A stretch of 64,000 nucleotides of DNA from Candidatus Binatia bacterium (lineage in GTDB: Bacteria > Desulfobacterota > Binatia > UBA9968 > JAJDTQ01), in the NCBI GenBank assembly GCA_963666515.2, contig OY762897.2, positions 768,001 through 832,000 on the forward strand, written 5' to 3'. Under the pieces are notes generated by a model, which saw only the letters and a program-made list of their open reading frames with translations, did no database searches and was not told the DNA's origin. The translations under genes were made by a program, and so were the position numbers. Shown piece after piece: positions 35,791-41,220 of the stretch (within the stretch, counting starts at the first letter, position 1; every line of letters starts with the position of its first letter).

Positions 35791-36555
35791 TCAGTGCAGG
35801 TTGGCCCCGCCGTTCACGAGAATCGACTGGCCGGTGACGAAGGCGCTCAGGTCCGAAAGGAGGTACAGCGCGGTGCCCACCACGTCCTCGGGTTTCTCGA
35901 TGCGCTGCAGCAGGCGCTTGGCCGCTGACCGTTCGTAGTCCTCCAGAGCGGCGGCCGTGGGCTCCGGCTCGCTGGCGGTGGAGCCCGGCGCCAGCGTGTT
36001 CACCCGGATGTTGTCGGGGCCCAGCTCGCGGGCGAGCACCCGGCTGAAGCCCACCACCGCCGCCTTGGACACCACGTAGTGCATCATGCCGCCGCCGCCG
36101 TTGTAGGCCATGTTGGAGGCGATGTTGACGATGCTACCCTGGCGGCGCTCCTGCATGGCGGGGGCCACCGCGCGGCTGCACAGCCACAGCCCCTTGACGT
36201 TCACGGCCATTACCCGGTCCCACTCATCTTCCTGGATGTCCTGGAAACCCGAGCGCGTCACCGGCACGCTCATGAAGACCGCGGCGTTGTTGACCAATCC
36301 GTCGATCCGTCCGAAGGCTTCGAGGGTGGCCTCGGCCATGGCCCGGCAACTCGAAGAGTCCGCCACGTCCGTCTGGAGCCCGAGGCCCCGGCCGCCTTCG
36401 CGCGCTACCTCCCCGGCCACGGACTCGGCGGCGGCCCCGTCGATGTCCGCGGCCACCGGGATGCCGCCCTCCCGCGCGATGCCCAGGCAATAGGCGCGGC
36501 CGATGCCGTTGCCTCCTCCGGTGACGATGACGACTTTCTGATCCAGCAGACCCAT
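35791..36555 (-). CDS. Short-chain dehydrogenase/reductase
   Basis: TGGGNGIG, LVNNAA, YVVSK, IRVNTLAPG. Confidence 0.92.
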   Translation of the reverse strand: MGLLDQKVVIVTGGGNGIGRAYCLGIAREGGIPVAADIDGAAAESVAGEVAREGGRGLGLQTDVADSSSCRAMAEATLEAFGRIDGLVNNAAVFMSVPVTRSGFQDIQEDEWDRVMAVNVKGLWLCSRAVAPAMQERRQGSIVNIASNMAYNGGGGMMHYVVSKAAVVGFSRVLARELGPDNIRVNTLAPGSTASEPEPTAAALEDYERSAAKRLLQRIEKPEDVVGTALYLLSDLSAFVTGQSILVNGGANLH

Positions 36556-36681
36556 GATCGTTCCTTTCTTCGCGGACACGCGCGTAGAACCTCGCGGCAG
36601 GTTGCAACCATCGGGATTCCTTGTCAAGGCAGCCCTCGGCTGCAAGCCGCACCCATCACCGTGCGTCCTCCCCACCCCAAC

Positions 36682-36713
36682 CCCCTGGACCCCGGGTCAA
36701 GCCCAGGGTGACG
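36682..36713. repeat. Palindromic repeat family B (CTGGACCCCGGGTCAAGCCCAGGGTGACG)
   Basis: Inverted relative of the copy at 38122-38177. Confidence 0.7.
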
Positions 36714-36765
36714 TGAACGTCGGCCACCTCTTCTACAATACCGCCCCGATTGCTAGTTTGTCCGT

Positions 36766-37215
36766 ATGGACCATCATGCAAATCTCCTTGAACGGAACCA
36801 GGACATCAGGGACCTGCTCGCCTCCGTCCATCGCATAGCCGTGCTCGGAATCAAGACCGAGCAGCAGGCATCCCAGCCTGCATTCTACGTGCCGCGGTAC
36901 ATGCACCGCGCGGGTTTCGACGTGATCCCCGTGCCCGTGTACTACCCGGAGGTGACGGAGATTCTCGGCAAGACGGTGTACCGCCGGCTGGCGGACATCC
37001 CCGGCGCGGTGGACTTGGTGAACGTGTTCCGGCGTCCGCAAGACATCGAGCCGCACCTCAATGACCTGCTGGCCGCGAAACCCGCGGCGGTGTGGTTCCA
37101 GTCCGGCATCCGCCATCAGGCGGTGGCCGAGACGCTGGCGCGGGCGGGCATCAAGGTGGTCCAGGACCGCTGACTCATGGTGGAACACCGGTCGCCGGCG
37201 GCGACCATCCCATAA
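36766..37215 (+). CDS. CoA-binding (YccU-like) protein, probable selenoprotein (UGA at 37171-37173)
   Basis: IAVLG, VDLVNVFR, AVWFQSGI; reads VVQDR-TGA-LMVEHR where the family has DRC; next stop TAA 37215; hairpin follows the TGA. Confidence 0.8.
37174..37213 (+). promoter_or_regulatory. Candidate bacterial SECIS element
   Basis: GGTCGCC-GGC-GGCGACC (37190-37206), loop 23 nt after the UGA. Confidence 0.65.
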
Positions 37216-37231
37216 CCCTCTCCGGCCTGAC

Positions 37232-38110
37232 TCAACCCAGGGCCAGAATCCAGCACAGCAACACGGCCGCGGCCCCCAGGACGCCGATCCTGAGCTGCAT
37301 GCGTGCGTTCTCCGGATGGTCCGCGGTGGCGGCCCGCGCGCCGCCCACGGCTCCGCCCGCGGCCAGCCCCCAGAAGTGCGCCCACAGGTCCACGCGCTGG
37401 CCGCCGGTGCCGAGCATGCCGAGAATCGCCAGTCCGGCGGCCAGCGGCACCCAGGCCCGCCGTCCCCGCAGCCCGATGCGCCGCCGCCGCACCACCCCCG
37501 TCCCGCCCAGTACGCCCAGCGCGCCGAAGACCGCGGTGGAGGCTCCCACCGAGATGTGGTCGAAGCCGTAGGACCACGCGTTGCAGAAGTTCCCCAGCGC
37601 GCCCGCGCCCAGCACCAGGGCGGCCCCGACCCCCGGGCCTTCGGACCGGCAGACCGCGGTCAGGAAGAACACCATGGCCACCGCGTTGGAGCCCACGTGG
37701 GGCAGATCGGCGTGCAGGGTAAGGGCGGTGACCGTGCGCCACAGCTCGCCGCCGAGGATCAACTCGGCGGAGGCGGCGCCGCGCGCGACCCAAGGCACCA
37801 ACCCGTGGGTCCAAGCCTCAACGAAGAAGAACGCCAGCAGCCCCGTCGCCACCCCCACGCCGGTGTAGAGGGGCGCCTTGCCGGTCCACACCTGCTCTTC
37901 GGGCGCCGTGGCGCGGGTCTCGCTCTCGTAGTCCCAGAGTTCGGTTACCGCCTGCTCCAGGTGCCGCGAGGGAACCGACAGCACCCAGCCGTTGGAGGTG
38001 CGCTGCAGACGCGGAGCCAAGCCCTCCGCTTCCAGCACCAGCGCCCATTCCTCGGCCCGGCGCAGGTCCGTCGTCCTGCGTACGATGATTTCCCGTCTCG
38101 CCTGCATCAT
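37232..38110 (-). CDS. Rhomboid family intramembrane serine protease
   Basis: WRTVTALTLHAD..HVGSN, VGASTAVFG, AHFWG. Confidence 0.9.
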   Translation of the reverse strand: MMQARREIIVRRTTDLRRAEEWALVLEAEGLAPRLQRTSNGWVLSVPSRHLEQAVTELWDYESETRATAPEEQVWTGKAPLYTGVGVATGLLAFFFVEAWTHGLVPWVARGAASAELILGGELWRTVTALTLHADLPHVGSNAVAMVFFLTAVCRSEGPGVGAALVLGAGALGNFCNAWSYGFDHISVGASTAVFGALGVLGGTGVVRRRRIGLRGRRAWVPLAAGLAILGMLGTGGQRVDLWAHFWGLAAGGAVGGARAATADHPENARMQLRIGVLGAAAVLLCWILALG

Positions 38111-38121
38111 GGCGTTCTACA

Positions 38122-38177
38122 ACGTCACCTCCGGGCTTGACCCGGATCAAGTCCGGAGCAGACTCCGGGGTCCAGGG
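38122..38177. repeat. Palindromic repeat family B with internal expansion
   Basis: ACGTCACCTCCGGGCTTGACCCGG...GGTCCAGGG, reverse-complement relative of 36682-36713. Confidence 0.7.
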
Positions 38178-38281
38178 ATGGGGCGAGCGGGCCAGAATGA
38201 CGGGTGCCGGCATTCGGATCCTGGCGCATGGGACGTAGATACAAGACGCGACCAGCGGCTTCAACTTCCGCCGGCGCGGCC

Positions 38282-39145
38282 TCAGCGCCAGGTGATGAGC
38301 ACGATCCCGGTGACGATCAGCACCGCCCCGGCGGCCACCCGGGCGTTTACGGTCTCCAGGTCCCGCAGGAACAGGGCGCTGAAGAGCACGATGAAGAGCG
38401 GGTTGGTGTTGATGAGCGGCACCACCACGGATACGTCCCCCTCGCTCAGGGCGATGTAGCCCAGAAGCTGGGCGGTGGCCGATACCACCGCGGCGGTGCC
38501 GTAGAACGGCAGGCACTTCCGGTCCCCCTGGAAGGTGGCCCGCAACTGGCCCGTGGCCGCCAGGCTGAGGGAGAACACCGCCAGCGACGTGGTGATGGTG
38601 ACGGCGGTGGCGACGTAAGGGTTGGGCATGATCAGCAGCCCGGTCTTGCGGAAGTTCTGCGAGATGGCCGTGAGGAAGGCCGCCCCCAGCGGGTAGGCCA
38701 GGTGAATGGCCTTCCACTCGCTCTCCCCCTCGCGCCGGGTGGAGGTGAGCCACACCCCCACCACGCTCAGGAGCGATCCCAGGTAGACCGCGGCTTCGGG
38801 CCGCTCGCCCAGGAAGGTGAACGCCAGGGCGATGGCGAACAGCGGCGTCACGCTGCGCACCGGGCCGGCGCGCGACGCGCCCAGGCGGACGATGCCCGTG
38901 TAGTGGAGGAAGCGGACGATGGCGGGCTGGATCAGCCCGCTGATGATGAAGTACCAGGTGGCGTCGGTGTAGAGCAGGCTCAGCGGAAAGAACAGCCAGA
39001 TAGCAGTCCACAGCGCCACCGTGCTCAGCACGAACCCCATGAGCGCGGCCAGCGCCACGCTGGCGTAGCGCGAGCCCCGGCGCACCAGGATCGCCTCGGA
39101 GCCCCACGCCACCGCCGAGGTCAGGGCTAGGAACTCGGGACCCAT
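38282..39145 (-). CDS. DMT/EamA family transporter
   Basis: About 10 TM segments in two repeats; PLFAIALAFTFLGE and PLFIVLFSALFLRDLE. Confidence 0.9.
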   Translation of the reverse strand: MGPEFLALTSAVAWGSEAILVRRGSRYASVALAALMGFVLSTVALWTAIWLFFPLSLLYTDATWYFIISGLIQPAIVRFLHYTGIVRLGASRAGPVRSVTPLFAIALAFTFLGERPEAAVYLGSLLSVVGVWLTSTRREGESEWKAIHLAYPLGAAFLTAISQNFRKTGLLIMPNPYVATAVTITTSLAVFSLSLAATGQLRATFQGDRKCLPFYGTAAVVSATAQLLGYIALSEGDVSVVVPLINTNPLFIVLFSALFLRDLETVNARVAAGAVLIVTGIVLITWR

Positions 39146-39170
39146 GACGACCGGCGTTGAAGCGTGAGAC

Positions 39171-40019
39171 TCACTCCAGCACGAGCGGGGTGTCGTCGCG
39201 GTTGGCCCACTCGCCCATGGAGCCGTCGTAGTTGCGCGCCCGCTCGTAGCCCAGCAGTGTCAGGACGAAGACTCCGTGCGCCGCACGGATGCCGCCCTGT
39301 CAATAGGTGACCACTTCCTTGTCCGGCGGAACCCCCGCCTGCTCCAGCAGGCTCCGAAGCTCCCCGGCCGGTTTCAGGGTCTTGTACGGCTTGTCCTGGA
39401 GGAAGTTGAGCCATTCCAGGTGTACCGCGCCCGGGATGCGGCCCGCCCGCTTGTTGCCGCGGTCGTTGGCGCCCGTCCACTCGCCGTCCGAGCGCACGTC
39501 GAGGAACATCACGTCCGGGTTGCCGACGTTGGCCGTCCCGTAGTCCAGCGTGCACACGAGGTCCGGGTTCGCCTTGGGGTTGAACACCGCGCCATCGGGC
39601 TTCGGCACGTCCAGGGTCATCGGCCGTCCCTCGCCGAACCACTTCTGCCAGCCGCCGTTGAGCACGGTCACCTCGGTATGGCCGTAGTAGTTCAGCACCC
39701 ACCACAGGCGCGCGGCCCACAGCGACCCGTTGCTGTCGTAGGCCACCACCCGCGTTCCGTCGCCGATGCCCAGGCTCTCCATCACTTCCTTCGCCGTGTC
39801 CGGCGGCGCCACCAGGGGGTACTTGCGCGGTTCCTTGTCGTATCCCGGCTGCTTGATGTAGTGGTGCACGCGGATACCGACCGCGCCCTTGATGTGAGCC
39901 CGGCGGTAGACGTCGAACGGATCGCAGTCCACGATGCGGATGTCCGGGTCGTCGAGATGCTGCTCCAGCCAGTCTGTCTCCGTCAGCAGCTCCGGGTGCG
40001 CGTAGCCTTCCTCTGCCAT
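39171..40019 (-). CDS. Two-domain rhodanese/sulfurtransferase, probable selenoprotein (UGA at 39302-39300)
   Basis: GHTEVTVLNGG, FLDVRS, GRIPGA; active site VVTY-TGA-QGGIRAA, then ARNYDGSMGEW signature to TGA 39171. Confidence 0.9.
39261..39299 (-). promoter_or_regulatory. Candidate bacterial SECIS element
   Basis: CAGGGCG/CGTCCTG lower stem plus TCCGTGC-GGC-GCACGGA upper stem, loop 17 nt after the UGA. Confidence 0.75.
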
Positions 40020-40149
40020 GGGTCCACCTCCTGGTGTGGCGTGTCGAATCTCTAACAGATCGAACGGCGGCGCGCGAACGCGCCCGGCTTGAACTGTCGC
40101 GCCGTCTTGGGCGAGAATGGCACACTGCAATCTATCGGAGGGAAACGAC

Positions 40150-41220
40150 ATGTCCATGTTCATCGACGCCGACGCGCACGTGATCGAGACCGAGCAGACC
40201 TGGGAGTTCATGGAGGAAGAGGACAAGCGCTTCGCGCCGGACCTGCTGGTCTCGGAGCGAAGCGGCCTCCGCTACTGGCGCATCGACGAGCGGGTGGTGC
40301 CCAACACCAACATCGGCCTCAACACCACCGCCGAGTCCCGCGAGCTGGCCGACGTGTCGGCGCGCATCGCCCACATGGACGAGCTGTCGGTGGACGTCCA
40401 GGTCATCTATCCCACGCTGTTCCTGCGGCCGCTCACCGCCCGGGCCGACGTGGAGCGGGCGCTCTGCCGGGGCTACAACCGCTGGCTGGCGGAGATCTGG
40501 AAGCAGGGGGGCGGCCGCATCCGCTGGGTGGTGCTGGCGCCCGTCCGGTCCATGGACCGGGCCATCGAGGAAATCCGCTTCGGCAAGGCCAACGGCGCCT
40601 GCGGGGTCTTCATACATGGCTTCGAGGGCGAGCGGCTGCTCTCGGACGACACCTTCTTCCCCATCTACCAGGAGGCCAGCGACCTCGACATGCCCATCTG
40701 CATCCACGCGGGCGGCGGCAACCTCGACCACTACGACCTGTTCGCCCAGGACGTGTTCTCGCGCTTCAAGCTCCCCGCGGTGGGCGCGTTCAACAACCTC
40801 ATCTACAAGGGCATCCCCGACCTGTTTCCGAAGCTTCGCTGGTGCTTCGTGGAGACCACCTCCCAGTGGGTCCCCTACGCGCTCAACGACCTGCAGATCC
40901 GCACCACCGCCGAGCTGACCTTTCGCCGGAAACACGCCGACAGCAAGCTGGCCGGCGTGCGCGGCGCGCCCCGGGAGCTGGGCGACGGCAACCTGCTCAA
41001 GGACAACCGCATCTACGTGGCCTGCCAGACCACCGACGACCTCCCTTACGTGATCCAGCACGCCGGCGAGGACAACATCATCGTCGGCACCGACTACGGC
41101 CACGCCGACTACTCCAACGACATGGAGGCCATCGCCACGCTGGCGAAGGAGGGCGTACTCGCCGAAGGCGTGGGCGACAAGATACTGAGCGACAACCCCC
41201 GGCGGCTGTATGCCCTCTAG
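40150..41220 (+). CDS. Amidohydrolase_2 family protein
   Basis: IDADAHVIETE, ICIH, VGTDYGH; close paralogue of 34479..35567. Confidence 0.9.
   Translation: MSMFIDADAHVIETEQTWEFMEEEDKRFAPDLLVSERSGLRYWRIDERVVPNTNIGLNTTAESRELADVSARIAHMDELSVDVQVIYPTLFLRPLTARADVERALCRGYNRWLAEIWKQGGGRIRWVVLAPVRSMDRAIEEIRFGKANGACGVFIHGFEGERLLSDDTFFPIYQEASDLDMPICIHAGGGNLDHYDLFAQDVFSRFKLPAVGAFNNLIYKGIPDLFPKLRWCFVETTSQWVPYALNDLQIRTTAELTFRRKHADSKLAGVRGAPRELGDGNLLKDNRIYVACQTTDDLPYVIQHAGEDNIIVGTDYGHADYSNDMEAIATLAKEGVLAEGVGDKILSDNPRRLYAL

Follow-up and report, generated by a model that had tools for sequence, protein, structure and literature searches.

Does the TGA at positions 37171-37173 of this stretch end a gene, or does it encode selenocysteine (Sec) within one? 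The stretch, called the window here, is 64,000 nucleotides (nt) of a Candidatus Binatia genome (contig OY762897.2 of assembly GCA_963666515.2, positions 768,001 to 832,000), and the gene in question (36766-37215, forward strand) codes for a small single-domain coenzyme A (CoA)-binding protein of the CoA_binding_2 family. A first-pass annotation, made from the letters of the window, had described an open reading frame (ORF) that stops at VVQDR-TGA, a frame that continues past this codon to a TAA ending at 37215, a TGA placed at the family's conserved C-terminal Cys, and a hairpin GGTCGCC-GGC-GGCGACC with its loop 23 nt after the UGA, and had proposed a new selenoprotein family. Each of these features is present where it was placed, and with a probability of roughly 90%, judged from sequence comparison, 36766-37215(+) is a genuine selenoprotein gene in which Sec replaces the invariant Cys of the family motif VVxDR-C-LMVEH.

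The in-frame UGA and the codons beyond it

As conventionally read, the ORF at 36766-37173(+) has the last residues ...GIKVVQDR, followed by the TGA at 37171-37173. With this codon translated as U the frame runs on through LMVEHRSPAATIP (37174-37212) to a TAA at 37213-37215, giving a product of 149 residues (149 codons, ATG ... VVQDR-U-LMVEHRSPAATIP, plus TAA) in which the predicted Sec is residue 136. The read-through product matches Pfam CoA_binding_2 (PF13380) with 117.1 bits (cut-off 22.8; E 7.4e-34), and the match, which runs from residue 23 to 141 and covers positions 2-115 of the 116 in the profile, spans the UGA; alignment of this kind was one of the checks that had been proposed for the gene. 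Within the tail, LMVEHR is part of the conserved domain and SPAAT is encoded by the hairpin. No NCBIfam model matches the read-through product.

The column of the UGA is Cys throughout the family. In the alignment with 1IUK (Thermus TT1466; E 4.2e-29, residues 11-142) the sequence DRCLMVEH lies opposite the window's DR-U-LMVEH, and the same column holds the Cys of DRC in 2DUW (E 8.1e-16) and of NRCMMREH in 2D59 (Pyrococcus PH1109; E 8.9e-16). It is also Cys in 29/29 distant homologues sampled across the phylum (32-64% identity), and C136 is invariant in a 35-row alignment. Logan contigs from four runs reproduce the window stretch with the TGA and have no variant at 37171-37173, neither TGC nor TGT, although the four runs represent at most three samples from one study and are possibly the window's own source, and so are not independent of it. 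The run contigs also reveal a co-occurring strain that differs at 37185 (GAA>GAG) and 37212 (CCA>CCG), both changes being synonymous in the read-through frame.

The codons past the UGA bear most directly on whether it could be a true stop, in which case the protein would end at Arg135 without the Cys and the last helix, either as a pseudogene or as a short form, and the tail would be a leftover. Public annotation treats the codon in this way: in a list of the 120 highest-scoring public protein records, 15 have 135 residues and carry only the names 'CoA-binding protein' or 'uncharacterized protein', and all eight of those read, NCBI and ENA records included, end ...VVQDR. The tail does not behave as a leftover, however. 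In 31 Sec forms, which were found by protein homology and are free of the bias of a DNA pattern, residues 137-142 are L-M-V-[E/D]-H-R without exception, across three clades (in the window's genus, in a second family of the order, f3, and in Rokubacteria) and two phyla, and they are kept with synonymous changes (Leu as CTC in 9, CTG in 19, and CTT in 3; Val as GTG in 5 and GTC in 26; Asp as GAT in 8 and GAC in 19). Mean pairwise nucleotide identity in family f3 is higher in the 30 nt after the UGA than in the 30 nt before it (0.95 vs 0.81) and falls to 0.27 in the 30 nt past the real stop; the corresponding values in the window's genus are 0.97 before the UGA, 0.98 after it, and 0.56 after the stop, and identity in the Rokubacteria type is 0.36 over the 30 nt that follow the true stop. 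Identity among relatives thus drops after the TAA, and the pattern fits a double constraint past the UGA, for coding and for RNA structure. On this evidence the tail after the UGA is translated. Moreover, a specific hairpin tracks the TGA and has compensatory changes, and a leftover would not persist across 27 species genomes and at least 80 metagenome contigs, as described below. A true stop at 37171-37173 is therefore very improbable. Some truncated product is likely to be made anyway, as Sec insertion in bacteria is inefficient.

The downstream hairpin and the selenocysteine machinery

The hairpin occupies 37190-37206 and consists of GGTCGCC (37190-37196), the loop GGC (37197-37199), and GGCGACC (37200-37206), with 23 nt from the UGA to the loop. 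Published criteria for the bacterial Sec insertion sequence (bSECIS) are a loop of 3-9 nt that has G among its first two nucleotides, a stem of 4-16 bp, a spacing of 16-37 nt after the UGA, and a minimum free energy no higher than -7.5 kcal/mol (PMC13188914, Fig. 2 legend). These were applied by our own script, with perfect stems only, and the window hairpin lies within all of them (7-bp stem, GGC loop, 23-nt spacing, -11.6 kcal/mol). The same is true of 24 of the 25 Sec forms in the order (median hairpin energy -11.1 kcal/mol), of all 26 Sec forms from the genome collection that are long enough (median -11.1 kcal/mol), and of 73/78 metagenome Sec forms (median -11.1 kcal/mol), compared with 4 of the order's 40 Cys forms (median -1.4 kcal/mol). 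The hairpin thus goes with the TGA, and the earlier suggestion that it is a bacterial SECIS element with a G in its loop is sustained. A scan of 36000-40500 by Rfam E-value gives no match.

The hairpins of the three clades have different sequences at the same distance from the UGA. That of the window's genus is identical in 5/5 Sec forms (UGA-N16-GGUCGCC-GGC-GGCGACC) and absent from most Cys forms; that of family f3 is UGA-N14-CCGGCG-GUU-CGCCGG in 21/21 Sec forms, one with the loop GUC and one with a G·U pair; and the Rokubacteria type is CCG[G/C]C[G/A]-GCUC-[C/U]G[C/G]CGG. Across 17 distinct sequences of the Rokubacteria type, 97.5% of the cells of the 7-bp stem are paired, versus a mean of 87.4% in shuffled sequences, with 0/500 shuffles reaching the observed value and slid controls giving 17-52%. 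Compensatory double changes are found at two of the seven pairs (G-C in 11 vs C-G in 6, and G-C in 10 vs A-U in 5), the sequences being related and the counts not independent events.

The genome that contains the window is 98% complete and codes for the whole Sec system, all four of selA, selB, selC, and selD, which had been named as genes to look for, being found above cut-offs. The tRNA-Sec scores 73.1 bits (cut-off 47) and is identified by ARAGORN as SeC with the anticodon TCA, and selA (587 bits), selB (371 bits), and selD (381 bits) are clustered and all above curated cut-offs. The selD gene (C1:4043412-4044335) has an in-frame TGA of its own in the classical motif KAAG-U-AAKLG, with a 9-bp hairpin (loop GUC) 33 nt past its UGA. 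UGA-136 would be decoded as Sec by the canonical bacterial route, using tRNA-Sec, SelA, SelB, and SelD, and the hairpin 23 nt downstream, inside the gene's last codons, would direct the insertion, a proposal that draws on established knowledge of SelB and SECIS elements together with the features found here.

A crude scan of the genome for TGA codons with 50 open codons upstream and at least 10 downstream, a filter on GC content at third and second codon positions (GC3/GC2), and a hairpin with 6 bp or more and a G among the first two nucleotides of its loop returns 12 places: the CoA-binding gene, a rhodanese gene in the window, six genes of known families, and four that are likely false. The six, all with an in-frame TGA and a candidate hairpin, are an AhpC/TSA protein (WUGKC), a deiodinase-like protein (FGSITUPPF), two GRDB proteins, a member of the UGSC family, and an OsmC-like protein, and the candidate positions outside the window are C1:914845, 3054816, 3528360, 970182, 2127487, and 1114737. 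The genome has at least seven further genes predicted to code for selenoproteins of known families, and the organism appears to be rich in selenoproteins. Simple criteria that retrieve seven selenoprotein genes of known families therefore also recover the CoA-binding gene, and the GGC loop recurs in two of the other scan hairpins. FdhA, the formate dehydrogenase alpha family, is not what keeps Sec in use in this genome: a search for it gives nothing above cut-off and shows no in-frame TGA.

These findings also bear on a second alternative, in which the UGA is passed with no use of selenium, for instance through a near-cognate tRNA (tRNA-Cys or tRNA-Trp) or a local recoding signal, and the hairpin does no more than stimulate the event. 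The inserted residue cannot be told from sequence alone, and to this extent the alternative is served by the same data. Against it stand the complete Sec system and the classical selenoprotein genes, which have similar small-loop hairpins with G first, two of them with GGC; the placement of the UGA exactly at the Cys column, which is a hallmark of Sec; and a Cys form in the f3 clade (in genome G487) that has kept the stem and changed the loop G to C, selA not being found in that genome (92% complete). Read-through without selenium accordingly carries only a slight probability, and decoding as Sec is the reading preferred here.

The rhodanese gene recovered by the scan is a second predicted selenoprotein gene in the window, at 39171-40226(-). 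It codes for a two-domain rhodanese (PF00581, E 6.4e-37) whose TGA (39300-39302) is in the active-site loop VVTY-U-QGGIRA, with 42 codons beyond it; the annotated ORF ends at the TGA, and a hairpin UCCGUGC-GGC-GCACGGA lies 17 nt past the UGA. Selenoproteins of the rhodanese type with UxxG are already in Table 1 of PMC13188914. A link between this gene, 2 kb downstream, and the CoA-binding gene gained no support, no rhodanese being found at the loci fetched from relatives, most of whose flanks are too short to tell.

Distribution and origins of the selenocysteine forms

Orthologues in the order (E <= 1e-30) are present in 70 of 123 genomes, and 67 of the loci were read, those of G458, G461, and G478 not being among them; these three genomes and G497 and G739, all unpublished, enter the survey totals only. 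At codon 136 there is a TGA in 26 of the 67, a TGC or TGT in 40, and a frameshift in one (L132). The TGA forms make up 5/19 orthologues in the window's genus, 4/4 in genus g269, and 17/20 in genus g5, the remaining three g5 orthologues being one Cys form, the frameshifted locus, and that of G478, which is provisionally flagged for TGA. The single TGA flagged in each of G520 and G504 is the ordinary terminal stop of a Cys form; G764 also has a provisional TGA flag. At the frameshifted locus L132 (G481), and at L142, the frame is broken somewhere within about residues 88-135, while the TGA, tail, and hairpin are kept, with the TGA and tail of L132 lying in a shifted frame as read by eye; the copy is either a frameshifted pseudogene or the product of an assembly indel error. 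In an even sample of the phylum a homologue (E <= 1e-20) is found in 76/401 genomes, with an in-frame TGA only in the window's genome. The selA gene is found in 110/123 genomes of the order.

The DNA pattern [VI][VI]xDR-TGA-LMV[ED]H, which reaches the DR-U-LMV[ED]H subtype only, occurs in 27 stretches of a species-genome collection, and 27/27 are this gene, the TGA being preceded by an open CoA_binding_2 frame and followed by the tail; these stretches partly overlap the 26 TGA genomes of the order. Their records are mostly Candidatus Binatia or 'delta proteobacterium' metagenome-assembled genomes, and those of L140, L146, and L151 name Rokuibacteriota or Methylomirabilota. A metagenome collection has at least 120 stretches with the pattern, and among the matches listed 80/80 loci share the gene architecture. 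In the phylum of L140 a homologue is present in 94/251 genomes, and the 32 loci read (30 among the matches listed, plus L146 and L151) comprise 27 Cys forms and 5 Sec forms, with selA found in two of the three Sec-form genomes tested. Independent genomes with TGA or Cys at the same column and with conserved coding downstream, which the first-pass annotation had suggested seeking, are found.

A maximum-likelihood tree of residues 1-135, which leaves out the Sec column and the tail, was built from 96 rows (two partial rows and the frameshifted row being omitted) by an IQ-TREE quick search with support from the Shimodaira-Hasegawa-like approximate likelihood ratio test (SH-aLRT). The Sec forms fall into three groups: five rows lie within the window's genus (support 99-100 for the clade), another 19, from family f3, form a clade with one Cys revertant (support 91-92), and the last five share a Rokubacteria clade (support 99) with 27 Cys forms. 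At least five changes of Sec/Cys state are required on the tree, and the simplest reading of the sequences is three Cys-to-Sec replacements together with reversions, the alternative being an older Sec state with many losses.

Several Cys forms illustrate how the hairpins may have come and gone. L124 (G487) is the sole Cys form (TGC) within the f3 Sec clade, and its hairpin, CCGGCG-CUU-CGCCGG, keeps the stem and has the loop CUU for GUU; among the Cys forms it is one of four passing the bSECIS criteria, and it probably reverted from Sec to Cys recently and retains its SECIS as a fossil. The Rokubacteria Cys forms (L281-L309) have the tails HRRLRR or HRRL[RA], coded CGN CGN CTN CGN CGG, which are already partly self-complementary, and this Arg-rich, CGN-coded tail may have eased the birth of the SECIS. 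One of them, L283, is sister to the Sec form L304 and has the same hairpin with one mismatch, which suggests a proto-SECIS or a recent reversion. Taken together, these forms offer a clean natural case of SECIS evolution, in which three lineages appear to have made different hairpins from the last ten codons at an equal distance from the UGA, with compensatory changes, a likely proto-hairpin in Cys tails, and a fossil hairpin in a revertant.

Several observations weigh against the selenoprotein reading. Taken alone, the window hairpin is unremarkable, the 66-nt stretch folding no better than shuffled sequences (z = -0.32; 73/200 fold equally well); alone it is no more than chance in this GC-rich DNA, and weight is taken from the comparison across relatives instead. 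The hairpin criteria are loose, and four of the 40 Cys forms pass them as well. The selA gene is not found in G464, one of the 26 Sec-form genomes of the order (93% complete, 670 contigs), nor in G523, one of the three Rokubacteria Sec-form genomes. No RNA run containing the gene is present among the runs searched, and the incorporation of selenium at residue 136 is argued from the genomes. The remaining rival, that a TGC or TGT was turned into TGA by faulty sequencing or assembly, has a negligible probability, since no support for it was found, the same codon is TGA in 26 orthologues of the order, 27 species-genome stretches (partly overlapping), and 80 metagenome contigs, and the contigs of the four runs, though possibly not independent of the window, lack any such variant.

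A candidate selenoprotein family and its proposed chemistry

The gene appears to represent a previously uncatalogued bacterial selenoprotein family. It is absent from Table 1 (119 families or subfamilies) of a May 2026 review (PMC13188914), the text of which contains no PF13380, YccU, COG1832, Rossmann, or succinyl, and in which the only entries that mention CoA are CoA-disulfide reductase, acetyl-CoA synthase gamma (HgcA), and a crotonase-type DsbA-like protein. The family is likewise not mentioned in the accessible part of a 2022 review (PMC9312934), in the Global Ocean Sampling paper (PMC2398784), or in a 2022 preprint on eight new selenoprotein families. Literature on selenoproteins or selenocysteine with CoA binding yields nothing relevant among the matches listed, although the supplements of primary screens may mention the family, and nothing was found on selenoproteins in Binatia. 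The novelty first proposed for the family therefore stands as far as checked, it being missing from that table, without an NCBIfam model, and represented by public records that stop at the UGA. It would add to the prokaryotic selenoproteome a family whose fold is not thioredoxin-like and whose carriers are uncultured soil lineages, recorded as Candidatus Binatia and as Rokubacteria/Methylomirabilota, and in which current annotation cuts the protein at residue 135 and loses the key residue.

In known selenoproteins Sec is located at redox or catalytic sites, and residue 136 is plausibly redox-active or catalytic, as judged from its conservation and replacement. The specific chemistry proposed, put forward tentatively and at a little under even odds, is that this Sec or Cys links reversibly, by an Se-S (or S-S) bond, to the thiol of the CoA that the protein binds, and that a thioredoxin-type reductant resolves the bond. 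Residue 136 would be positioned next to that thiol, the adduct formed (protein-Se-S-CoA, or S-S-CoA) would then be resolved by the reductant, and the protein would act as a CoA-specific thiol-disulfide exchange or carrier protein, with Sec speeding the exchange or guarding against over-oxidation. The proposal draws on the invariant Cys, its repeated replacement by Sec, and two reports on relatives. Bacillus subtilis YneT, a putative CoA-binding protein of 135 residues, has CoA disulfide-linked at Cys126 (TVIMDLC126IK) in spores, according to a passage of PMC8127865, and compared by eye this peptide matches the family motif VVMDRCIK. In living Escherichia coli cells a cross-link to thioredoxin 1 by way of a Cys was obtained with seven proteins, YccU among them, according to a passage of PMC5740110.

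The evidence on this chemistry is not all favorable. The YneT match is that of a 9-residue peptide with a motif by eye rather than a full-sequence alignment, the passage on YccU does not name the cross-linked Cys (PMC5740110), and PMC10136147 ascribes deCoAlation in B. subtilis to YtpP and TrxA, with no mention there of YneT. Gene neighbors across the lineages also give no functional lead. The flanking genes are on the opposite strand in all lineages, so the gene is monocistronic, and their identities vary by lineage, including a short-chain dehydrogenase/reductase (SDR), a rhomboid, and an amidohydrolase; an alpha/beta hydrolase, a molybdenum subunit of the xanthine dehydrogenase type, and a methyltransferase; and a cobalamin adenosyltransferase and a DUF72 protein.

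A scan of 36500-37400 for consensus promoters and terminators finds none, which says little in a GC-rich organism. A short repeated element (36681-36734) lies in the gap that separates the CoA-binding gene from the divergent SDR gene, and a 32-mer of it (36682-36713, containing CCCTGG...CCAGGG) has eight copies in the genome at <=3 mismatches and about tenfold higher depth in the run contigs.

A broader and more doubtful extension is that proteins of the YccU/YneT/TT1466 type in general are CoA-specific redoxins, with the CoA thiol bonded reversibly to the C-terminal Cys or Sec and recycled by thioredoxin. If so, the family would load, unload, or buffer CoA on oxidized thiols (CoAlation and deCoAlation, or the handling of CoA persulfide). 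Natural evidence of a catalytic nucleophile would come from three independent replacements of Cys by Sec, each accompanied by a new SECIS, and Sec would single out the C-terminal Cys as chemically active and tie it to CoA-thiol chemistry. The family spans bacteria and archaea and has solved structures and no known function, and the finding makes YccU and YneT testable in model organisms.

Among known proteins, the window protein is most like TT1466 (1IUK), PH1109 (2D59/2D5A), YccU, and YneT, with which it shares a CoA_binding_2 domain over the whole length, the motif VVxDR-C-LMVEH at the C terminus, and a stand-alone form of about 140 residues. It differs from them in having Sec for Cys and a predicted SECIS built into its last codons, and none of the solved or studied CoA_binding_2 members, a family without established function, is a selenoprotein. 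Like the catalogued bacterial selenoproteins, it has a UGA at a Cys column, a small-loop hairpin with G first 16-37 nt downstream, Cys orthologues, and selABCD in the genome; unlike them, it is Rossmann-like and nucleotide-binding and has no UxxC or CxxU partner cysteine by the Sec. Most characterized selenoproteins are thioredoxin-like in fold (PMC13188914).

The other family named for CoA-thiol redox is the Sec-containing, flavin adenine dinucleotide (FAD)-dependent CoA-disulfide reductase (TIGR03385; table of PMC13188914). Unlike the window protein, that enzyme is a large flavoprotein with a UGxP motif and an unrelated fold, and there is no sequence relationship between them. Glutaredoxin, mycoredoxin, and bacilliredoxin are redoxins specific for low-molecular-weight thiols, and the resemblance to these would be one of analogy only, in that a single nucleophilic Cys or Sec would be recycled after pairing with one specific small thiol in a mixed disulfide. 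The fold of the window protein differs from that of the redoxins, and its CoA would sit in a dedicated nucleotide-binding pocket.

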